NCBI GenBank assembly: GCA_001244265.2
Contig: CDLV01000012.1
Location: 496,001 to 560,000 of the forward strand
DNA length: 64,000 bases
Reading direction: 5' to 3'
Source: Microbotryum violaceum
Lineage: Eukaryota
The translations under genes and the position numbers were made by a program. Shown here one piece after another: positions 5,101-59,900 of this stretch. Positions within the stretch are counted from its first letter, which is position 1, and every line of letters starts with the position of its first letter. The notes under the pieces were generated by a model that saw only the letters and a list, made by a program, of their open reading frames with translations, was not told the origin of the DNA and ran no database searches.

Positions 5101-6592
5101 ACGCAGCGAGGGGCGAGGTCGACCTAAGGTGGCTGCTACGTTCGCCGAACGACAAGTCGTAGCGGGGCAGGCCCGACTTGGAGCGGGGCACCGACGGTCG
5201 ACTCGACGCGAACGAGGACGTGGACGAGCCGTTGACGAGGTCGTTGTCGAATGGACTTGATTTGGCCGAGCCGGACGCGGACGAGGAGAAGACGCTCGAG
5301 CGCAAGTCAATTGATGACCCTGACTGCTTGATTGTCGGGCGTGTGGTCGTCGACATGGTTGTCACGTGGTTGCTGCTCGTCGTGTTGAAGTGGTGGTTCT
5401 GATACACGACAACAGAGGGGGAGGGGGAGGCGAGGGTGAAATCGAAGTGCACACACACACACACAACACAAGAGGCAAGGTCCAAGTTGTTGACAAGTGG
5501 CCGAAAGCGGGAATACCACACCGCGAGCAGCACAGACACGCGAGGAGCCAAAAACCAAAAAAAAAAAAAAAATCAGTGTGCGCGGTTCGAGAGACAAACA
5601 GTAGCTTGGAGCCGGCGGCGGCGCTGGGAGGGTGAAGGGGCGAGGGGGCGGTTTTGCCCAAAAAGCAGAAAGGCTGTCTGTAGCAAGGCCAGGCCTAGCA
5701 CATCGTCTTGTCCCGGGGAGTCGGCGACTGTGAAACCGGACAGATTCCGCCGCCCGCTAGCGCGGAAATACAACCTCGGAAAGGAGAGTGGCCATAACGC
5801 ACCGTCGCCGGCTACTGCGATAGGGGGCGCGACCGGGTGCACGGCTGAGACGCCTCCACTGCCCCCGCCCCTGGCCCCCTCTGTTCTCCCGAGTCGGCGA
5901 GGCCCCAAAGCCGAGACACCGTTGCGGTGTTTTTTCACCCTCTCGTATGACACCATACTGGTGGGAGACAGAAGAGGAAAAAACAAGAGGGGATATTCGC
6001 TCACCAGTCTGTCCACAGAGTGCCGTGACGGCAGTTGATTCGGTTCGGTTGGCCACCCATTCGCGGGCGCCGCGACCGCGACCGGTACAGTGGCCGTCGG
6101 TGTCGTTCCATTCGAAGCCGAATGCCCGTCAGAATCCTGGGGTAGCCTCGTCGAATCGAGCCCGACTGCCGCCTCGTCATCGCCGTTCCACCTCGACTTG
6201 ACAAGCGATTCTTTGCTCGCCGATTCGCGGACCGTCTTGAACCCGAATACCTCTTCACCAATTGCCAAGCTGCTCCCGCCGGGCGTGCGTTGCCCCTCGT
6301 CGGCTATTCCATTCGAGCGCGACGAAGTAGGGGTCCCTGGTCCGCAGACGCTTCGCATCGAGCCACCGTTCGTCCCATTCGGTAAGCCCAACTTGGAGTT
6401 GGATCGCGTGGCACCGACGAACAGATGAAAAGAAGAAGCTTCGAAGGCGGGAACGCTTCGTTGCCCTGGTCCGAACCGATCGAAAACGGGCGAGGGCAAC
6501 TTGCCGAGCGAGAGCGACGACGCTAAAGAAGTGGACGAGGTCGACAAGGGTTCGAACGACTGTCTCCTCGGGAGTCCCATCGGTCGAGACAT
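2171..6592 (-). CDS. PUF3: Pumilio/PUF RNA-binding protein (Puf3-like), multi-exon
   Basis: PUF repeats across exons: [87 protein letters not shown]; ends [12 protein letters not shown] at 2171. Exon 6592-6006 splices in phase 0 to 5399; alternative ATG at 5356. Confidence 0.85.
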
Positions 6593-46300: not shown

Positions 46301-47720
46301 CCGCAAGGTCGGGCACGTCCTCCCGCGTCCCGTGATCCGTTCCGTCGTCCGCTCTTCCGCTCCTTCCTCATCCTTCGCAACCAACAAGGCCTAGGCCTTT
46401 CATCTCCTACCTCACCGGAAGAAAATCGCACCTCACTTGACCTTGCCATGTCTACCTCCTTCGTGACTCGCGAACTCCTGCACACCAGACTGTCGTCGTT
46501 CCCGGCAGCAGCAACAACTTGTGCCGCTTCACCCCGGAATCTACGCGCCGCGGTTCGCCGAGTAGGCATGACCTCGAGCCGCCCGTTCGTCATGCAAGCC
46601 TCCACGTCAGTAAGGGCTTGCCCGCTACCCCACACTATGCGATTGGCGACTGTGGCTGTCTTGTCTCTCTCTGCCGTAAGTCTTGTATTCCCAGCTCTGA
46701 CGGCAGGGGTAGACGGACGCGCCGAAGGCGTCGGGACTCGGGAGGCGGCGCGGCGGCGCGGCCCTGAGCTGGCATGCTCAAAGCTCGTGACCCGTTGCCG
46801 AGATGGCGAACGCCGAGAAACGCGTTCAGCTCGAGCTGACACATCCACCCTTCGACCCTTGAAAATCTCATAGGCATTATTACTATCGAACCCGGACAGT
46901 TTCGATCATACCGCTGGTCCAAGGTCCGGACTCCAATACTACCCAGCTCACCACCACACCCAAGCCGCGTCGAGCCATCGTTGCCTCGCCGTCGCAAGTC
47001 CCGTCGACGTAGCGCCAGGGAGGAGATCCGCCCACTCGGCGACTACATCGCTCCCCAAGGCGACGTCACCCAAGCGCCCTTCGTCGTTGTTGTCGTCGAG
47101 TCGATACGGGAGCAACAAGGAATTAATGTTGGCCGAAAGTTTAGGCAAGACGCTCGCTTCGTCGTATAAGTCATCCTAAGCGTCGCTCGAAAGGATCGAA
47201 TAGGAGGCCAGACGCCAGACAAGGCTGGGCGCTCAGACCATTCACTTCATGCAAGCCCGCTCGGAAGCGCTCTCGTACCGGCTCGCGTCGTATATCATTC
47301 ATGTTCACTCATTAAAATTGCGCAGCCTTTGTAGTCACGATTAAGTTCACGGAGTTCCACCTTCAGTGCCTGTAATAATATGTTCTGTCAGTTCCACAAA
47401 CTTTAGGAGCCCAGACGCCATTGGGAGTCCCAAGACATGTGCAGCCGGACTCGATGCCCGTGTATCACTTCGCAAAGTGAAATTGGACAAAGAACACTGG
47501 GCACATTCAAAACACGGATTCCGATATGCTCCCGAGTGCTCAACCGAGAGATGAGACCAAAAATGACAGGGGTCCTCTTCCGCCTCCTTCCCACTAGAAG
47601 CGCCTCACGATCCGAAGCCAACTGATACGGTTGGTAAAAAAAAGGCTTCAACTCCTCGCGGGGGGGAGGCGAACGACTGAAACCAGTACCAAACTAACAA
47701 ACAAAAATTAGGTTTGTTAA

Positions 47721-47811
47721 TTCTCGTGGCGAGACTTGAACTCGCGACCTTCAAGTCACTTTGGTTTAAAAAGTGCATAAGCATGACGCTCTGCCACTAA
47801 GCTACACGAGA
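47721..47811 (-). tRNA. tRNA-Ile (anticodon UAU) with ~19-nt intron
   Basis: Minus strand TCTCGTG TA GCTT AGTGGC AGAGC G TCATG CT TAT G [CACTTTTTAAACCAAAGTG] A CTTGA AGGTC GCGAG TTCAAGT CTCGC CACGAGA A: 7-bp acceptor stem, A box, B box GTTCAA, downstream T-run (47703-47707). Confidence 0.9.
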
Positions 47812-47840
47812 GGCGCAGAATTTTTCTTGCAAAGCTACAT

Positions 47841-47850
47841 TAATATAAAG
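47841..47850 (-). promoter_or_regulatory. TATA-like element about -30 to -39 of the tRNA gene (putative TFIIIB site)
   Basis: CTTTATATTA on the minus strand in an AT-rich 5' flank. Confidence 0.45.
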
Positions 47851-47872
47851 TCCAAAACACTATTTTTTGAGC

Positions 47873-48175
47873 TGTCTTCGTCTCGACCGAGTGGGAAGTG
47901 GCTGTGGGGTGGGCCTTCTGTCGTTAGTACATTTCTTTTCTTTCTTTTTCTCTTCGTCTCTCTTTCTCTCTCTCATTAGTCTCCTGGGGGGAGCAACCGC
48001 TTGGCTAGGGCATTTGAATCCGAATCTCGGATTGGTGGACTTGGCTCGTTTCTCGCACTTTTGCGGGCGGTTTGTGTTATCATCGTAGTCTTCCATCTAG
48101 TTTTTCCGTAGGCCAAAACAGGGGGAACAGGAACTGGGGCAATATGATGAACGTTTTCTACAAAAAAAAAAAAAA
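47873..48175 (+). mobile_element. Unit 1: 5'-truncated LINE copy (3' UTR end plus A14)
   Basis: Nearly identical to 48764-49066; ends ...aatatgatgaacgttttctac(A)14. Confidence 0.92.
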
Positions 48176-49066
48176 TGTTCAACGCATGTTCGGACTTCCG
48201 AAGCTCAAGGCCAGTCTACGCGATCAAGAAGGAGCGGGGAGGACGATCGAAATATTCACCGGGCTGGTCTTGGAGATGATCAGCAGCGGGAGGTGGGGGA
48301 TGCAGAAGTGGGGGACGAGGATGGAGGGTGTTGGGAGGAGGAGGATCATCTTGGAGGAGAGGTTGAAGCTGAGGGCGGGAGGAGCTTGGGGGAGGAGAGG
48401 GCAGTAGAGGCTGGGTTCGACTTTCCCCCCACCACCACTACACACACACACACACCAAATTCTCGTGACATCATTTTCTCCTACTGTACACTAAATAGAT
48501 CGCTTTCATCTTTCATTTGTTACAGGTTCATCGTTGCGGATCATGGACCATCTCGCGATTTGGCGTCGACTCGGTGTGGCTCGCGCTCTTCGGCTTCGGG
48601 GTTCTGAGTCAAGGGAGGGATCAGCGGACACAGGCAGAAAGTCGGCTTTGAGGGGCCAGGGACTGCCGATGGGGGAGGTTTTGAGGGACCTTCACCGCGT
48701 CTTGTTGTGACTGAGCAGAGACTTGGAGCGTCGAGGGTCGTGGTGGTTGCGCAGTCGTGCTCTTGTCTTCGTCTCGACCGAGTGGGAAGTGGCTGTGGGG
48801 TGGGCCTTCTGTCGTTAGTACATTTCTTTTCTTTCTTTTTCTCTTCATCTCTCTTTCTCTCTCTCATTAGTCTCCGGGGGGGAGCAACCGCTTGGCTAGG
48901 GCATTTGAATCCGAATCTCGGATTGGTGGACTTGGCTCGTTTCTCGCACTTTTGCGGGCGGTTTGTGTTATCATCGTAGTCTTCCATCTAGTTTTTCCGT
49001 AGGCCAAAACAGGGGGAACAGGAACTGGGGGCAATATGATGAACGTTTTCTACAAAAAAAAAAAAA
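48176..49066 (+). mobile_element. Unit 2: 5'-truncated LINE copy (end of ORF2, 3' UTR, A13)
   Basis: Encodes [28 protein letters not shown]...RRGQ*, homologous to the ORF2 C-terminus at about 55570-55799; the 3' UTR is homologous to 55800-56437. Confidence 0.92.
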
Positions 49067-49378
49067 GAGGTTCTCCGTATCCCCAGTAGTGACTTTCTGT
49101 ATACTCTCCCCCTTCTTTCTCTAGGCGCTCTTACCTGGTTTTCGAGTATCTTTGCTCCCGCTCTTGGGACGTGAAGCGGCAGCAGTACTCACCGCCCGTT
49201 GGAGTCCGCGTTAGGTGCTCGGCGGGTTTTGATCTGCGCAGCGCTCTTTGCGCGCAGGGGTTTGACTTTCACCCAACTGCTTGCCGTCGTTGCTTTATAA
49301 CCTCCTTTAGCTCTTTTTGTAGCGGTCCCAGCCAACCCGAAGGATTGCAATTTATGAGCCCCAGTCAAAAAAAAAAAA
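49067..49378 (+). mobile_element. Unit 3: short poly(A)-ended segment, probable 3' end of a different retroelement family (alternatively part of the 5' UTR of unit 4)
   Basis: Starts right after unit 2's poly(A), has GC hairpins, ends in A12 (49367-49378); no obvious similarity to the other units' 3' ends. Confidence 0.5.
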
Positions 49379-49380
49379 TG

Positions 49381-49484
49381 ACTTCACTTCACTTCACTTC
49401 ACTTCACTTCACCTCACCTCACTTCACTTCACTTCACTTCACTTCACTTCACTTCACTTCACTTCACTTCACTTCACTCCACTT
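49381..49484 (+). repeat. (ACTTC)n pentamer array, about 20 units, at the 5' end of the full-length LINE
   Basis: Read directly; a few ACCTC/ACTCC variants. Confidence 0.95.
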
Positions 49485-49535
49485 GGCCCTACCGCAGTCT
49501 TCGATACTCGAGTTAACAAGTGATACATCGACAAG

Positions 49536-51789
49536 ATGTCTACAGGAGACCCTGGGTCCCCACCGCCGGCACCGCCACCACCGGTGTCCGCCACCAGCGT
49601 CCAGCCACCCGCGACCAGATCCCGATAAGCTCGAAGAAGACGCAAGCCACGGGCCCCGCCACCGCCGCACCCAACTATGCCGCCGCTGCGAGTCAGGCGA
49701 CTCAGTCACCTGAACAACAGCAACAACAACAACAGCGTGCCAAGGCTCTGGGCAGCCTCCTACAAGCCATGGGTGCTGTACCCGGAAACCGCATGGATCG
49801 TTGGGTCCAGGCCATCTACTTCGCCGAACTCTACCCCGTCGCCACCGCCACATCGCTAAAACTATCGGCCTTGAACGCGAACCGGTCTGTCGAGAACATC
49901 TTTGATTACGCCCTTGAAGTGACTCTGTCTCACCAGAGCGCCTCGCGAGCGTCTCATGCCGACAAGACCGATCTCGTGGCCTGCGTCACGAGGCTGTTAT
50001 CGCCGATCTCTCCTATCTGCTTTGAGCCTGGAGTTCCTCTGCCGGACCACCTTGCAGCCTATCGACCACAGATCCTAGGCGTACAACATTCATCAATCCT
50101 GCGTAATGGGGCGGCTCACCATCGCGTTACGGTTGGGTTCGTCACCGGCGAGGCACGTGACGCTGCGCTTACGACGCCCCCTGCTCTCACTTGGCGATCG
50201 GCGAAGGCCCGCTTCGCGAAATCTCACAGGTTCCACCATAACATGGTCGAGCTTCGAATCAACGTCGGTGTTCAAGGAGTGCCTTCCATGTATGCCATCA
50301 TCAAATCGTTCCAATTACTAGTGCAGGACTTGTCAGGCAAGGGACATTCGTGCCAACTTGTGCAGGTTCTGCGCATTATCAGCGTGGACAACGCCTCGGC
50401 CTTTGCCCACGTTGCCGGAGACTACTCAGCTTTCCTACACTTCGATGACGACTCCCTGTTCAAACGCCCTAACACGACCTTGAAAGAGATCCTACCTTCG
50501 AGAATCGGCCTTCCCACTCGAGGCATCCCCGTCACCGCCCTTCGCCATGACTATGAGAAGGAGGCGGCTTGCGGTAGGTGCCACTTCGTTGGTCACGTGG
50601 GAACCTGCGGACTGGATCAGGAGAGCAAGCGAAAGGAGGCTCACAACGGCAACGGCAACGGCAACCCCAACGCCAACAAGAACACCATCACCAACGACAC
50701 CAACATTGTGGAGGCCGAGGCCCCCATTCCTGTGCCAGTTGTTAGCAGGATCGCATCACAGAATCGCTTCGCCGGGCTCGAGGTTGAGGAGGGACAGGAG
50801 GAAGCGGTAACTGGCCAGAGCGGACAGGGGCCAGAGGAATCGGGGGAGGAGGACGCTGGTGATAAGGCGGATGACGAGGACTCGGAGGACTCGGAGATGG
50901 AATCAGAGGCGACCACGAAAACGGAGGTCATCAAACTTAAGAGCGAGGACGAGTCGGTTTTAGAGGACTGCGGAGGATCCGATGGAGAGGTGATTGATGA
51001 GGATGAGGTGATGGCGGATGGAAGGGGCGAAACAGAAGGCAAGGTGGCGACGGAGATGGAGGAAAGGGAGGTGGCGACGGAGGTGGACGATGTGGACGAG
51101 GCAGGGGAGCGACGAAAGCGGAGAACGCGGAAGCGACGGACTTAGGGGAGACGAACAGGCTGGACAATGACGACGACAGCGACGCAACAGCAACCGTCGC
51201 CACCGCTTCCCGCGAATCGACACCCCACGAAACAACCCCACCTTTGTCACCCGAAACTCTTGCCAAGTCGCTTCGCGAGGGGGAGGAATGGGACAGGATC
51301 AGAGCTAACTGGGTTGAGCAGGCACGACTCGAGCGGGACCAAAGCATCGAGAGGAGGCTCGACGCTGAAACCCCTTTGGTGCGTCACAACTTTGCCACGT
51401 GGGATGAGGACGGTGAGATACGTTCCATGAATATCAGGGGGACCGCTTCGAAGTTCAAAAAGCCGGTAATGAAGAGGTCGCAGACTGCGGCGGACCTCAG
51501 TGACCCGAGTGACGAACCGACCGACGCCAAGCGAGTGATCATCAAAGGGAAGAGCCGCGTCGTTGTCAAGGATGGAACAGAGGGGCGGAGGGTGACGAGG
51601 TCGATGTCAGCGGCGGCGGCGATGCCGGTTGGCGTGACGAAAGTGGACCGAGGGAAAGCAAAGGGGGTAGCCGAGGAGAAAAGATGGTCCGACCACGAGC
51701 CCGAGGACGATGTCCTGCCCGCCCTCCCCTCTTTGAGGACGTCACCACCGCCAAGAGCGCTTCGACCTCAACTACCCATTAATGATTAA
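49536..51789 (+). CDS. LINE ORF1 (gag-like, single zinc knuckle, acidic linker), two 1-nt frameshifts
   Basis: ATG 49536 [11 protein letters not shown]; frameshifts near 49608 and 51105 join it to ORFs 49520-51145 and 51244-51789; CX2CX4HX3C knuckle near 50570-50610. Confidence 0.75.
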
Positions 51790-54700
51790 GCACACCATCA
51801 TCACCTGGAACGTGAGGAGGGGCATGGGGGTCCCGGAGAAACGACGTGACATTTACAACTACCTATCCCTTTTCAAAGCATCGGCCATTCTCATACAAGA
51901 GCACTTCATCAGACCGCACCTCTGGCAACTCATCAAGGACGAGTACGAGGGCAAGCTCTTCATCAACCAACATTGTCTGACTCTAATTCCGGCTGACTCC
52001 CCCCTGATCGACGCCGAGCTCTTGCGCACCCACTCGGCACTCGACGGCCGGCTCCTCGTCACGTCCTTTCGTCTGCGGGGCGACATCAAAATTCTAGAAA
52101 TCAACAACGTTTACGCGCCCGTTGACCCAAAGCAACGAGCGAAATTCTTTGAAAAACTCTTATTTCACAAAACACAGAAATCCCACCTCCGACTCCTTGG
52201 CGGTGATCTCAACGACTGCCCGCGCCCAGAAGTCGATCGGCGGAACCAAAGTCGGCGCGGCCACCACTGGCCAATCCTGATCGGCAAGCTCGACTCGGCC
52301 TACACGGACTGCATCCGCTACAAACACCCCATCACCCCATCCTTCACTCGACCTAATCCCAATCGCAAAGCGACCCAACTCCTTCTCCCGGCTTGACTAC
52401 TTTCTCCTGCAACGGACACACCAAAAAAGACTCGATCAGGCCTCGACGATCTACGACTATCCCAAGGAGCTTTCCGATCACCGACCGGTCTTGATTGTGC
52501 TGGCTCTCTCAGACGATCCTGATGTGACCCTCCCACAGCTCAGCCTACCTACCACATCAAACCAACCACATCGAATCAACACCACAACCTTTAAGACGGT
52601 GGAATTCCAGCGGATGATGGAAGGATGGTTGGAAGGGGCAAGCGGGGAGGAACCGGTGGGGGAGCTCGAGGTCATTCTGAAGGCGTGCAGGGATAGGGGT
52701 GGGGAGATGGCGAGGAGGTTGCATCGGGAGCGGACGGAACGGATGGAGTATTTGGTGGGGAGGGTGCAGGATCTGGAGGCGATACCGGAATGGGGGGAGG
52801 CGGAAACGGCAGAATGGACAAGGACGTCCGAGGAACTCAAGCGGGCGGTCGAGGAGCGCGCGCGCCTACTCCGGATCCGAGCCCACGTACCCGAGATCGC
52901 CTCCGAGGAACGACTGTCGCGGCCGGTCCACGCCAAGCTCGCGGCGCGGAACTCGGACTCCAAGATCACAGCACTGCGCTTGAGCAACGGAGAGCTAACG
53001 CATGACATTGATGTCGCTTTTGACCACACGCAGGCGCATTTCCAGCGCCTCTACCACATCGAGCCTCGTGACCCGGACCGCGTCGACCGACTTCGGGACG
53101 AATTCCTCGCGCCGATCAGGGCGGCGCGGACTTGCGACGACCCGCGCTCGGATCCTCTCTTTCTGCGCCGACTCTCGGAATCGCAGATCGACTTACTCCA
53201 GCGACCAATCACCGAGGACGAGGTCGTGGCCGCGATCGGGACGACGCACCCGGGGCGATCGCCGGGACCGTCGGGCGTGCCCTACGAACTCTACCAGACC
53301 GCACCCAAGGCGTGGGCCAAGGTGCTGACCAAGGCCTACAACGCGATGATAGAGCGAGGCTCACTCTCTCCCAAGCAGGGCCAAGGACTCGTGCGCCTCA
53401 TCTTCAAGCGACACAAGGAGAATGCTGATCGCGCCGAACTTTCGTCGTACCGGCCGATCACCCTGCGCGAGTGCGATTACAAGATCTTTACCAAGGTCTA
53501 TGTCGCCCGTTTGAACCAGATTCTACCGGATCTCCTCCCGCCGCAGCAGCACGGATTCGTCAAGGACCGCCGATCGGCTGACGCTGCACTACACCTTCGT
53601 CTCCTGTTCGAGGAAGTTGGCGCGCGCAGGACCGAGTTCCCCGCGGCCGCACTCTTATCTCTTGACCAATCGTCCGCCTACGACCTCGTCGAGCATGACT
53701 GGATCTTTGCCATCTTTGACGCTCTGGGCGCTCCTGCCACCTTTCTTCGCGTGCTGAGGATGCTCTACTCGGGTGACTCGACCTCGGCCCGCTACATCAT
53801 CAATGGGTTCTTGACGGCGCCGGTACGACTGACGTGTGGGCTCGGCCAAGGGGACCCGGCGTCGTCGTCGGTCTGGGACATCGTGTTTCAGCCGTTTCTG
53901 GATGCTCTACACCGTCGAAACATCGCGCTGAATCTCTCCGTACCTGCACTTCATCCGTACCCACAGAGCCGCGCCATTACATCGCTTGCTTTTGCCGATG
54001 ACGTTGTCGTCGCCGTCGCGGGCTTGGGGTCACTCAACTTGCTCAATGACCTGGCGCTCGACTGGAGGCATGCAACGAATGGCCGGCTCAACACGGACAA
54101 GACGGTCGTCCTACCGATCGGACGCCGCTGGGACCCGGGGCAACGCCCGCTCGTCGTCAAGGCCGCAGGCGAGTCGCTCGAGTGGATCGGCCTCCCCTTC
54201 GACCCGAGCGGCGACACCGAACTCGCCTACGCGAATCTCATCGAACGCCTCGAGGCGACGCTGGAAGGGGTTCAGCATCGCTGGCTCACACACCACACCC
54301 GTGCCTTTTACGTCAATCGGTACGCCATCCCCAAGATCCTGCACTTCCTTGCAGCCGACATCCCGCCGCCCGAAGTCGTCAAGAAGCTCGATGACATGCT
54401 CGTCGATTTCGTCCGTGGGGGCAAGAGCAGGACCAGCTACGGCAGAGATATCGTGTTCACAGCCAAGCTCAAGGGGGACTCGGGGTGATCAGGATGCAGG
54501 ACGTCGTGGACGCGGTTGCGGCACGGATCTGGGACGTTCTTCTCGGCGGTTCGGGCGCGATCTGGCAAGGACTTGCGCGCGCGGCACTCCAGCGAGCTCA
54601 GTCCGACCTCGACCTGGCCACCGATCTCTGGCCACATCCATCCACTCCCATCCCAGCGACCTCCATCCCCGATGGCGAGCAGCATTGGGGGTTCCGAAAC

Positions 54701-55799
54701 AGCAAGACGCGCAGGTCAACCCGAGGACCTTGACCACCGCAAACCTGCTCGCGCTTCCCACCTTGCTCGGCAGCCTCCACACCCCATCAGAGGGAGACAG
54801 ACCATCGGCGCGGTTCATATACCTGACTACCTTCGTCTCCAGGGCTACCCGAAGGTGACGAATCTCTACCGGCGCGAGTTGTATGCGGGTGGGGGGTTTC
54901 ACCTTTGGACGCCGCCGGCGGATGTGCTCGGCGACAACAGCGAGTACGATCGACGCGGGCTCCCGCAGCGACTGGCAATCGCGGCCTGGTACCGGTTCAC
55001 TGTCGATCGACACAAGAACACGCCCTTGGCGGTGGCGGTGGCGGCAGGACGGCTCAACGTGCCTCCCCGGATCGGCACCAGCGCACCACTCGAGGCGATT
55101 CTCCCCAAGCCCGTGGCCCGCTTCGCAATGGAGCAGCGCCTTCCGGACCCGGTGCTTCCACAGCAGGCGAGCCAGTACAAGCTGCTGAACATGGCTCGAC
55201 CGTACACCATCCGTCGCATCCGCCGGGTCCTGAACGCGAAGGCCTTTACCAACACGCTCGGGCTCCAGGGACCACCGCAGCCGGACGACCTCAGGAGCTT
55301 TTGGAAGGCGGTCAACTCGAAGGCACTGACGGCGAGGGAGAGGGAAGTTTGGTTCAAGCTGATTCTCCGCTTCACCCCGACGCGCAAGCTGCAACATCAA
55401 CAAAATCACGACACTTCTCCCGCGTGCCTCGTCTGCGAAGCGCCGGTGGACGACACCGACCACTACTTTTTCGGCTGCGTTGACTCGCGGAATGTCTGGA
55501 TCGGGGCAAGGGGCGTGCTCTGCGACGCACTCGGGTGCGACACGATCGAGGACGACCAGTACACGACACTGCAACGGCTCTTTGGCCTCCCCAAGCTCAA
55601 GGCCAAGCTCAGCGAACAGGAAGGGGCGGGCTGGACGATCGAGATCTTCACGGGGATGGTTTTGGAGATGATCAGCAGTGGGAGATGGAGGATGCAGAAG
55701 CACGGGACGAGGATGGAAAGCGTGGAGAGGAGGAGAGTGGTACTGGAGGAGAGGATGAAGTTGAGGACGGGAGGAGCAAGGGGCGGGCGAGGGCAGTAG
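51782..55799 (+). CDS. LINE ORF2: apurinic-like endonuclease + reverse transcriptase + zf-RVT, four frameshifts
   Basis: [89 protein letters not shown]-terminal CLVC...DTDHYFFGC. Confidence 0.93.
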
Positions 55800-56447
55800 A
55801 GGCTGGGTTCGATTTCCCCCCCACCATCCCACACACACACACCAAATCACACTTCCTCTTTCAAAACTGTATACTAAATATTTTGCTTTCATCTTTCATC
55901 TATTACAGGTCTGCCTTCGTTGCTCATGGACCGGCTCGCGATTTGGGATTGCCTCGACGGTGCCTCGCGCTCTTTGTCTTCGGGGTTCTGAGTCAAGGGA
56001 GGGATCAGCAGACACAGGCAGAAAGTCTGCTTTGAGGGGCCAGGGACTGCTGAGGTGGAGGTTTTGAGGGGCTTCCACCGCGTCTTGCTGTGACCGAGCA
56101 TAGACTTGGGGCTTCGTGAGTCAGGGTAGTTGCGCAGTCGCTCTCCGGTCTTTGTCTCGACCGAGTTGGGAAGTGGGTGCGGGGTGGGCCTCTTGTCGTT
56201 AGTAAATCGTTTCATTACTCTTTCTCTTTCTCTCTCCATCTCTCTCTCATTCGTCTCCTGGGGGGGAGCAACCGCTTGGCTGGGGCACTTGAATTCCAAA
56301 TATTGGATTGGTGGACACCGGCCCGTTTCTCGCATCTTGCGGGCGGTTTGTGTTATCATCGTCGACTTCCATTTAGTTTTTCCGTAGGCCAATCAGGGGG
56401 AACAGGAATTGGGGGCAATATGATGAACAGTTTCTACAAAAAAAAAA

Positions 56448-56539
56448 CCCCGACTCCTATCTTTTGCGGTTTATGTGGTCGCCAACTCTCCGCGACGCTC
56501 TAGGGCCTAGTGGTGCCACCTTCGCAGCAAAAAAAAAAA
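56448..56539 (+). mobile_element. Unit 5: ~90-bp poly(A)-ended segment, possible extreme 3' end of another retroelement
   Basis: Directly follows unit 4's poly(A); hairpins gtcgc/gcgac and ctagg/cctag; ends in A11 (56529-56539). Confidence 0.45.
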
Positions 56540-56928
56540 GGCTTAGGCAGTGATTCTGAGGAGGATCTATGGATGACGAAATGTTGGTGTGCAGCATATC
56601 GCCTTGATCGCGTCGCGAAGCATTTGGGCCTCCCTCAGCCCGTACACAAGGGCTCAGATACCGGGAAGCGGCCGACTTCACGCAGCACGAGGGTCATGTC
56701 AAGCGGTCGTTACTCAAGACCCACTGTAAAATTATGGTGGTGTCCGCCGGGTCAATCCAGCTACTGTTCAATCCTTGTGTTCAAATTATCACCACAACGG
56801 CATCTGTGAATATCGTCGTGCTCATTTCGTAACGCCTAGCTAACGACACGGATAAACAAAGGGCACAAATCGTGGAACGATCGAATATCGGATAGCTACA
56901 TCGTACTCGTACTTGAATGTCCTTTTTT

Positions 56929-59900
56929 TCACCAAACCTGGCACTTGTGCTCGTTGTTCATCCTGCTTCCGGCCTTGCACTGGAAAGCCTTGATGAATTG
57001 CTCGTTGTTCGAGAGCGGGCCGATGACTGTGATGGGCATCATAGTGCCAACGGCGGCTCAGCTGAGGATCAGGAATATCAATCTCGGTCTGAGAAACGTA
57101 CCTCGGTAATTCGTGGGCGAGTGGGGATCGGTGCGAACCCTCTTGACCGCCTCCGAAGGGTGGATGTTCCTGGCCCAACCTTGGGCATAAGCTGTGGAAG
57201 GAGGACCCAAAGTTTCAGCATCACACGAGCTCGTTCAAAAGGAGCTCTCGCAGAACTCACCGATGAAGAACAACTGCTCCCGCGTGTACTTGACACCAGG
57301 CAACAGCCAGTTCACCCCCTCGCCCTTCTTGGACTCAAAACGATCACTCCAGGCTCGGAAGCTCTGACTGATTCCACCTGCGTCCGCCATGTCTTCACCG
57401 TTCGTCAGCTTGGAGTTGACGTAGACTTTTCGTCCCTTGTCGTCCTGCACGTAGTATTGAGCGTATTGATCGAGCAAGCACTTTTGGAGCCCTTCGAAGC
57501 GCACAACGGTCTCGTTCGTCCACCATTGGACAAGCTTGCCCTCCTTGTTGTACAGTCGACCGGCTTGGTCAAAGGCGTGCGACAACTCGTGACCGGCGAC
57601 TGATCCGAAAGCTCCAAAGGCCATGTATTCCGGCCTGTGCAATCCAAGCCAGAAAGATGGAGACGGTTAGAAGGCAAAATCTTGAGTCATCGACGTCAGC
57701 TTTCAGGATGACCACGTACCAATCCTTGCTAAAGTACGGCGCCTGCAAGATACCAGCTGGGAAAGCAATCTCGTTGGCGGGAGGCGAGTAGTAGGCGTTC
57801 ACCTCGGAGGGGATCATCTCCCATTCACCGTGATCGACCTGCTTGCCGAGCTTGACCCACAAGCGACGCTTTTCAGCGAGACGCGAGCGAAGCACATTGC
57901 CGAAAAAGTCAGTGCGATTGATGGGCAAATTCAAGCTGTAGTAGCGCTCGATCGAAGCGGGGTCCATCGTGTCGGGAGTTGTAGGGAAGCCGATCTGAAA
58001 GGAGAAGGAACTTAAGGGTTCAGCGCACACGACGGGACCGGACTGGACTGTATAATAGTCTCCTTGGGACAATACCGACCTTGTGCTTGATCGCATCCGC
58101 CTTCTCCTCGGCCCGCTTCCTCGTCGTCTCGTCGAGCCAGTCGAGCTCGGGCAAGCGATCCTTGAACGCTTGGATCGTCGCCACGATGATGTCCTCGGCG
58201 TATTCCTTGCTGTCGCCGGCGAACGCCTTCTGAGCATAGTACCGCCCGATCAAAAAGCCGTAGTTTTCCAACAATGACGCCAGGCAAATGTCCCCGCGAG
58301 GCGACGAAGTGCCCTCGGCAATGCCGCCGAGGTAGTTGGACAGCCAGTTGATCTCCTTGCGCACGGTTTGCTTGGGGCCGACCAGATCGCCATAAACCTT
58401 CGCGATCCTGAAGATGATGTACGCCTCGTAAACCTCGGAATCGACGTGCTTGATGAGCTTGGCAAGGTTTTCGAGGTACACAGGACTGGTGACGATGACT
58501 GGCTCGGGATAGCTAGGTCGCGGGGTGAAGCCGGCAAAGTAGTCTTTGAACGAGATCGAAGGGAAAAGAGCCTGCAGAGCGGTTGAATTGTAGGCATTGT
58601 ACGTCTTGCTTGGGTCCTCAAGGTCTTCCTCGTTGAGGAAGATCTTGGCGATCTCTTTCTCCCAAGCCACGACTCCGGACGCGAGTTCTTTGGGGTTGAC
58701 CGAAGTCTCGCCCCGAACGGCGTAGATGCTCTTGAGCGTCGCCCGGATAACTTCTTCATAGACTTGCAACGTGTCCTCGTCCTTGTAGTAGTCCTTTGAG
58801 GGTAGTCCGAGCCCGGCTTGTTGGACCCACGCCACGAGATGGCTGGGATCCTCGGCGACATCGCCTTGAAGGAAGAGCTGGAACAGCGTCTCGACACCTA
58901 TCGGACGCGAAGGATCGCATTGTCAGTCAATTTATAATCCCAATTCCCCAGATTCCCCAGATTCTTTGCTGCTTGGCGCCGTGCAAGGCTCACCTCGAGA
59001 GTGCAAATACATCAACGAGGCCGTCATTCGATCCTTCTTGGTCTTCTCGTCCCACTTGGGCTTCTTGAGCATCTCATCTTGGAACATAGAATCCTGGACA
59101 TTCTTGTCTGCCGAAGCTGACGACCCCCTCCAGGCACTAACGGCCTGTTCAACGAGGTCCATCAACGGGTCGAGGCCTTGACGATCGTGCAGATCCTCAT
59201 CGAGGCATGAGGCCCAAAAATCTTGCAGGTGGGCGATATTGCGCTGATCGGCTTCGTCCATCTTCTTGAGCGATGACTCCGACGTGGCCAAGACGTCGAT
59301 GATGACGCGCTGTAATGTTTTGCATAAAAGTCTTGCGAAGCATCAGCGTCGCGCCGAATCTTACAGGGTCTTGTAGTGACATCTGTCGTGTCCTCGGGTG
59401 GTGCCAGCAAAGGCGGAGGACTGACCTTGTTTCGCACACCGATGTCCTGGGCCGAGCCAAAAAATCCTTGGCCATCAGGGATAGGGTGGGTATCGAGCCA
59501 GCCGCCGTCTATGGCGGAGAGAGCCCACCCGTTCAGATGAGCACTATCATTATTTCAGACCGACGAGGTTCGGGACGCCGACGTACTCGAGAAGCGGTAG
59601 AAGTCATCGCACGGGTCGACGCTCTCGTCGAGCGCAGTCAGTACCGATGCAGCTACGGTGACACAGGTAGGGGTGAGGCAAACGTCCTTCTGTTGGTCGG
59701 TATCAGCCGGTGAAGAGGTGGCGAATGGTGCCGAGCGAGCGCAGGAAGGTAAGTAGGCCCATTCGCAGGAGGCCGATGCGCATCGGAGGTGGGGGCGGTC
59801 GCCGGTAGGCGGCGGGCGGCGGCGGATCGTCGGCAAGAGCGAAGAGACGAGATAGAATGAAGTGGTGCTCGTCAGTCTTGTCGATCAAAAACTTCCCATA

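Follow-up and report, generated by a model that had tools for sequence, protein, structure and literature searches.

The 64,000-nt stretch of DNA from the anther-smut fungus Microbotryum violaceum analysed here, hereafter the window (contig CDLV01000012.1, positions 496,001 to 560,000), carries a tRNA-Ile gene and, next to it, an array of poly(A)-ended units that includes copies of a long interspersed nuclear element (LINE). The tRNA gene is on the minus strand and the array on the plus strand. They are the sole tRNA gene and the sole LINE array in the window, and they adjoin, with a 61-bp spacer between them and their 5' ends facing each other. The array consists of five blocks, each with a terminal A-run, and its near full-length LINE copy contains two open reading frames (ORF1 and ORF2). 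The features of the locus are given below in order of position (Pol III, RNA polymerase III; APE, apurinic endonuclease; RT, reverse transcriptase).

47703-47707, minus strand: run of five T residues, likely the Pol III terminator (read from the sequence)
47721-47811, minus strand: tRNA-Ile(UAU) gene (Rfam RF00005 and ARAGORN)
47812-47872, no strand: 61-bp spacer from the tRNA 5' end to the array (sequence)
47869-47872, no strand: span of the recurrent 5' junctions, 58-61 bp upstream of the tRNA gene (contigs of sequencing runs)
47873-48175, plus strand: unit 1, 5'-truncated LINE tail of 303 bp ending in A14 (identity to the unit 2 tail)
48176-49066, plus strand: unit 2, 5'-truncated LINE of 891 bp ending in A13, of the subfamily of unit 1 (identity and contigs)
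49067-49378, plus strand: unit 3, 312 bp ending in A12, 5'-truncated and from another family of poly(A) repeats (contigs)
49379-56447, plus strand: unit 4, near full-length but degenerate LINE of a second subfamily, 7069 bp ending in A10 (Pfam and contigs)
49385-49484, plus strand: (CACTT)n-like microsatellite at the 5' end of unit 4 (sequence)
49517-51730, plus strand: ORF1 of unit 4, about 700 amino acids in relatives, open at 49517-51145 and frameshifted thereafter
51737-55799, plus strand: ORF2 of unit 4, with APE endonuclease, RT and C-terminal zinc-binding region (Pfam, in three frames)
56448-56539, plus strand: unit 5, 92-bp block ending in A11, a candidate retro-unit only (sequence)

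The tRNA gene was the sole Rfam match within the 64 kb (RF00005, 55.9 bits, E 2.3e-09) and the only Pol III-type gene detected across the window. ARAGORN at default settings found no tRNA in the window because the gene carries an intron; when introns were allowed (option -i), it returned tRNA-Ile(tat) with a 19-nt intron, which together with Rfam resolved the discrepancy. Pol III terminates at T-runs, and the T5 run located 14-18 nt past the tRNA 3' end is likely to be the terminator of this gene. The spacer contains a TATA-like element, TTTATATTAA, at 47840-47849, corresponding to -38 to -29 on the tRNA sense strand, which may function as a promoter element, and a T6 run lies directly ahead of the array junction. 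The G+C content of the window is 52-62%.

Altogether six A-runs of at least 9 nt are present in the window, and five of them are the unit ends; no T-run of at least 9 nt occurs in the 64 kb. The sole long A-run away from the array is an A16 run at 5557-5572 that follows a (CA)n tract (5440-5572 in total). This tract shows no similarity to the LINE units, has no tRNA gene nearby and is not obviously a retro-unit.

To compare the locus between strains, Logan contigs of four public sequencing runs (X1, X4, X8 and X11, from four studies and with three species labels, of which X1 and X4 share one and X11 has another) were aligned to positions 46501-57500, with 49366-49489, which contain the (CACTT)n-like tract of about 100 bp, masked. 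The depth figures of the contigs are sums of contig word depths, and no copy numbers were derived from them. Unit 1 (47873-48174) and the tail of unit 2 (48764-49066) share 99.0% identity; between unit 2 (48180-49063) and the tail of unit 4 (55572-56447), the identity is 82.6%. Upstream of 48176, high-depth contigs in all four runs carry on into ORF2 sequence (joint of 55549 to 48176), and unit 2 is therefore truncated. The three copies, of 303, 891 and 7069 bp, share their 3' end and have tails of A10 to A14. Judged by their sequences, units 1, 2 and 4 are assigned to a single APE-RT-zinc-finger LINE family with two subfamilies and three 5' truncation points. Unit 3, on the other hand, represents, in truncated form, a poly(A) repeat distinct from this LINE: it matched none of the other units in the window, and an identical loose end before 49069 was found in all four runs, with a high summed contig word depth. 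Unit 5 showed no similarity elsewhere in the window and was crossed unbroken by contigs in all four runs, and thus does not belong to the high-copy repeats. The block may simply be ordinary flanking sequence with an A-run at its end. Neither BLASTN nor tblastn revealed other copies of the LINE in the 64 kb, and the matches of eight LINE or LTR (long terminal repeat) gene models in the tblastn search were confined to 48174-55763 of the window.

An initial annotation made from the letters of the window had placed the tRNA 5' end at 47811 on the minus strand and the stack 61 bp away; the former was confirmed by Rfam and ARAGORN, and the latter is exact. It had further described five plus-strand poly(A) units, which stand as five A-ended blocks with the same boundaries, while the identification of unit 5 as a retro-unit was not confirmed. 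Its proposals that the units represent at least two subfamilies of an APE-RT LINE, and that the 64 kb hold no other LINE, agree with the identity between units 2 and 4, with the domain matches described next and with the BLASTN and tblastn searches.

The coding content of the LINE was assessed in unit 4 and in its relatives. An APE endonuclease (PF03372) was detected at 51737-52396 with an E-value of 2.2e-06 and 28 bits, against a cut-off of 24.5, with relatives scoring up to 60 bits. An RT domain (PF00078, E 1.4e-21) follows downstream of the endonuclease. The zf-RVT domain (PF13966) reached 26.9 bits in the degenerate unit 4, below its cut-off of 27.5, whereas the relatives P0002 and P0003 scored 46-47 bits, and the residues C1202, C1205, H1214 and C1219 of the C-terminal zinc-binding region are invariant in the alignment of relatives. 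The three domain matches of unit 4 fall in three different frames. The closest proteins to the RT frame were gene models of Microbotryum silenes-dioicae (at most 98% identity), M. saponariae (94%) and M. intermedium (90%). For an intact relative of 1325 amino acids, P0012, the best match among solved structures was the human LINE-1 (L1) ORF2 protein (PDB 8uw3, 8sxt and others; E 1.4e-22), covering the endonuclease and RT regions, and R2 was matched with an E-value of 1.1e-16. ORF1 is covered at 49610-51717 by residues 26-676 of the gene model P0010 (tblastn). No Pfam family was assigned to ORF1, no relative was found for it in PDB (best E 0.5), and the search against Atlas gave only sub-threshold leads to CCHC zinc-knuckle proteins, the top match (0.90) being unnamed. 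On the basis of the APE, RT and zinc-binding regions, the poly(A) end and the variable 5' truncation, the LINE of units 1, 2 and 4 is classified, as far as sequence can tell, as L1-type.

Compared with the multi-copy contigs of the four runs, unit 4 has no fewer than 8 indels, and the substitutions listed for it number at least 39; this copy is therefore degenerate. The differences are mostly transitions, with A or T in the window where the contigs have G or C; the counts per run were 18-20 for A>G and 14-17 for T>C versus 11-16 for G>A and 9-13 for C>T (window positions 49517-56447; X1, X4, X8 and X11). Mutation resembling repeat-induced point mutation (RIP) is known in the genus Microbotryum. 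The transition bias fits the G:C-to-A:T decay of an old copy that is expected from RIP-like mutation.

The (CACTT)n-like tract at the 5' end of unit 4 was considered as a pre-existing microsatellite into which the LINE had inserted, and this was rejected as the tract is absent 3' of unit 4. In run X11, a loose end past a LINE tail leads into similar CACTTCAC sequence; therefore, the tract probably belongs to the 5' region of the LINE.

The comparison of the runs revealed a marked difference between the two sides of the array. On the proximal side, the flank contig of X4 enters unit 1 as the window does, with the flank ending at 47872 and no differences. In X1, the flank ends at 47871 and is followed by two extra bases and then by 30 nt that match ORF2 at 55156, a 30-mer that occurs at a single place in the window. 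In X11, the flank ends at 47869, again followed by two extra bases, and the next 30 nt match the LINE tail at 48993 (equally 48102). The junction of unit 1 is thus found in X4, whereas the flank contigs of X1 and X11 lack it. The flank contig of X8 ends at 47825, short of the junction, so that the proximal junction could be read in three of the four runs. The variant contigs of X1 and X11 have single-copy depth. Over the 1.37 kb of unique flank to which they align, 3 and 8 differences were counted, respectively, and both therefore represent the same locus. On the distal side, a contig running from the last 8-35 nt of the unit 4 tail through unit 5 into the right flank was found in all four runs. 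The proximal junction accordingly has three forms within 4 bp and the distal junction one form; therefore, the distal end is old and common, while the proximal end is variable. The initial annotation had proposed that empty and filled alleles be compared across strains. The proximal alleles of X1, X4 and X11 do differ, while the view past each variant junction extends over 30 nt only.

At this locus, the three alleles have their junctions 58, 60 and 61 bp upstream of the 5' end of the tRNA-Ile gene. Every unit, like both variant junctions, is plus-sense and the tRNA gene is on the minus strand, so that the element's 5' end in every case faces the 5' end of the tRNA gene. Three proximal forms and one distal form are what integration at the tRNA side predicts and what stacking at the tails alone cannot give. 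The best reading of this locus is repeated, position- and orientation-specific integration beside the tRNA gene, and the idea, put forward in the initial annotation, of repeated insertion at a fixed distance with older copies displaced outward is in line with it. Divergence from the multi-copy contigs is small for units 1 and 2 and larger for unit 4, a pattern that fits younger copies lying closer to the tRNA gene.

Mechanistically, an L1-type LINE family, or a guild of such elements, in Microbotryum would integrate beside the tRNA gene at a fixed distance and in a fixed orientation. New copies, mostly 5'-truncated, would land at the tRNA-proximal edge of the array, older copies would be shifted outward, and the head-to-tail stack would grow. 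The likeliest landmark would be the Pol III pre-initiation complex, with TFIIIB on the TATA-like element at about -30, and the insertion point would then fall some 10-15 bp outside the expected upstream edge of the Pol III complex, as for TRE5-A of Dictyostelium. Both this order of insertion events and the part played by Pol III factors are what we infer from the arrangement, and other tRNA genes may be targets as well. For Pol III-directed, TRE5-like targeting by a fungal LINE, which is backed here at one locus, we put the chances slightly above even. A bolder statement would be that two or more poly(A) retroelement families, unrelated to each other, use Pol III genes as docking sites, integrating in one set orientation about 60 bp upstream, and that these are the first tRNA-targeted LINEs of fungi, with an origin independent of the dictyostelid TRE5 and still active. 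We regard this as evenly balanced; the elements would still be active because the proximal junction is polymorphic within one species label.

The recurrence of the junctions within 4 bp shows that there is a hotspot, not what defines it, and a local hotspot independent of Pol III has to be considered. The endonuclease or the 5'-joining step could favour the sequence found here or an open chromatin state (T6-GAGC, bordering an AT-rich stretch), and the tRNA gene 60 bp away would be a coincidence or an indirect cause, e.g., through a nucleosome-free region or a replication-fork pause. A T6/GA motif resembling an L1 endonuclease site is indeed located exactly at the junction, and the evidence comes from a single tRNA locus. 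However, the motif is on the strand opposite to the one that would prime plus-sense copies. Moreover, the array adjoins the only tRNA gene in 64 kb, with the orientation and distance class seen in the one well-studied tRNA-targeting LINE, and at least two unrelated poly(A) families (that of units 1, 2 and 4, and that of unit 3) have landed here, a finding easier to account for by a protein landmark common to both than by a common sequence preference. We consider such a hotspot unlikely. A different explanation is suggested by Zorro3 of Candida albicans, a fungal L1-type LINE with two ORFs that integrates into poly(A) tracts and has poly(A) both before and after its copies, as is the case for units 2-5. 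A single chance insertion near the tRNA gene, followed by insertions into the resident A-tails, would yield a same-orientation head-to-tail array without visible duplications. Units 2-5 each begin right after an A-run with no flank-derived duplication, and at other loci LINE tails are likewise followed by other LINE sequence or by sequence of the unit 3 family. Such stacking, however, would add copies downstream and keep the oldest proximal junction intact, whereas here the proximal junction varies and the distal one is common to all four runs. The proximal copies in the window, X1 and X11 also adjoin flank sequence that is not an A-run (T6-GAG..), and so the variable junction beside the tRNA gene differs from the targets of Zorro3, for which no regional preference is known. 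Tail stacking as the whole explanation is improbable in our view, although insertion at the tRNA side and insertion into tails may operate together.

It could also be argued that the array was formed only once, by RT template switching between poly(A) RNAs or by tandem duplication, and that the differences between strains are deletions or contig artefacts. Template switching gives head-to-tail chimeras without internal duplications, as mentioned for Zorro3 in yeast. The near identity of unit 1 to the unit 2 tail would also be expected, and the variant alleles are visible over 30 nt only. This explanation, however, requires two independent deletions whose left breaks fall within 3 bp of the array edge among 8.7 kb, each with two filler bases. 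The units, moreover, represent two subfamilies and another family that diverge unequally from the multi-copy contigs, and the junction of the window was reproduced in X4 without differences (although X4 may be the source of the window itself). We rate a single rearrangement or an assembly effect as very improbable.

Several observations weigh against integration directed by the Pol III complex, or limit how far it can be taken. One tRNA locus was examined, and the distance of 58-61 bp exceeds that of TRE5-A by about 10 bp. Neither between the units nor at the outer ends was a duplication of the flank beyond 2-3 nt found, and the 2-3 nt (TG, GAG and TGA) that follow three of the A-runs and equal the flank end are near chance expectation. 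Deletions could account for the variant alleles, with 232 bp of unit 1 lost in X11 and 7284 bp lost in X1. Even so, two independent left breaks within 3 bp of the array edge would point to recurrent cleavage at this spot. The contigs end where the repeat starts, which leaves the 30 nt past each variant junction, and short-read contigs cannot display the whole array in any strain. Among 80 loci of distant L1-like relatives in metagenomes (20-32% identity), a tRNA gene was present on four, in each case on the strand of the LINE and never in a head-to-head arrangement. In the two loci in which the distance was measured, L009 and L018, the tRNA was 1.7 and 2.6 kb upstream of the LINE ORF, respectively. 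The four metagenome tRNA genes, all on the LINE-ORF strand, are as follows.

L009, 156-226: tRNA gene
L018, 1930-2018: tRNA gene
L019, 3600-3688: tRNA gene
L020, 6960-7033: tRNA gene

These metagenome relatives are without evident tRNA targeting and too distant to bear on the Microbotryum family.

The closest parallel to integration at the tRNA side is TRE5-A. According to its published description, it integrates 47±3 bp upstream of tRNA genes (with a range of 37-211 bp in the reference genome), just upstream of the DNA range bound by TFIIIB, and its ORF1 protein binds TFIIIB subunits. Its integration is marked by a strict 5'-to-5' orientation, by 5' truncation and by additional non-templated bases where the 5' end is joined, hallmarks named in the same description. 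Both elements have an ORF2 with APE, RT and zinc finger and an ORF1 of no recognised fold. Both are found integrated tens of bp upstream of a tRNA gene, with the 5' ends of element and gene facing each other, and both show 5'-truncated copies, additional bases at the 5' junction and a terminal oligo(A). The comparison with TRE5 in the initial annotation therefore holds for orientation, distance class and extra 5'-junction bases. On the other hand, the host of TRE5-A is an amoebozoan and that of the present LINE a fungus, and the Microbotryum array, known from one locus only, was seen without target-site duplications. Contact between ORF1 and TFIIIB is known for TRE5-A only, and the likeness drawn here is one of habit. 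TRE5-A is filed under L1 in the table of a 2018 review. The human L1, which provides the best solved-structure match, differs in that the ORF1 of Microbotryum has no detectable domain of the L1 ORF1p type. Human L1 is not known to target Pol III genes in a position-specific way. The yeast elements Ty3 and Ty1 resemble the present case in being fungal elements for which Pol III genes serve as safe sites of integration, but they are LTR elements with an integrase and have another mechanism and other distances.

Stacks of the same orientation are also indicated elsewhere in Microbotryum. At other places in the genome, contig joints and loose ends show LINE tails that run into sequence of the unit 3 family or into a LINE 5' end. 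Five of the 11 gene models of at least 2300 amino acids contain two ORF2 copies, and same-orientation LINE stacks are therefore present at other loci too, where they inflate gene models. These five (P0001, P0002, P0003, P0006 and P0011; 2592-3492 amino acids) are read-throughs of two tandem LINE ORF2 copies, which often belong to different families (30-40% versus 67-88% identity to P0012). Such models point to stacking at other loci, but not to its position. The genome paper of M. lychnidis-dioicae reports 392 LINE copies, and the word tRNA is absent from its main text in a whole-word search.

Position-specific integration of non-LTR elements at Pol III genes is documented in dictyostelid amoebae only, and the known tRNA-targeting elements of fungi are all LTR elements. 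The 2018 review lists tRNA-targeting non-LTR elements from dictyostelids alone (TRE5, TRE3, NLTR-A and NLTR-B). We found no report of a LINE that targets tRNA genes in any fungus in the full-text literature, subscription papers and supplements being outside the search, and the suggestion in the initial annotation that such a LINE may be new to basidiomycetes agrees with this. If targeting by the Microbotryum LINE is true, safe-haven targeting by target-primed reverse transcription would have arisen a second time, independently; if it holds genome-wide, it would be a convergent variant of known targeting and the first in fungi. It would then show whether docking to TFIIIB is a general solution for LINEs in compact genomes, could provide a naturally position-specific LINE for mechanistic work, and would explain part of the transposable element landscape in a model system used to study sex-chromosome-like evolution. 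Microbotryum is represented by numerous long-read genomes and population samples, so that genome-wide mapping is feasible at once.

Directly to the right of the array, a gene for a peptidase of family M13 is present on the minus strand at 57569-58922 (PF05649, E 9.7e-59, plus PF01431), and the array is thus located between the tRNA gene and the M13 peptidase gene.

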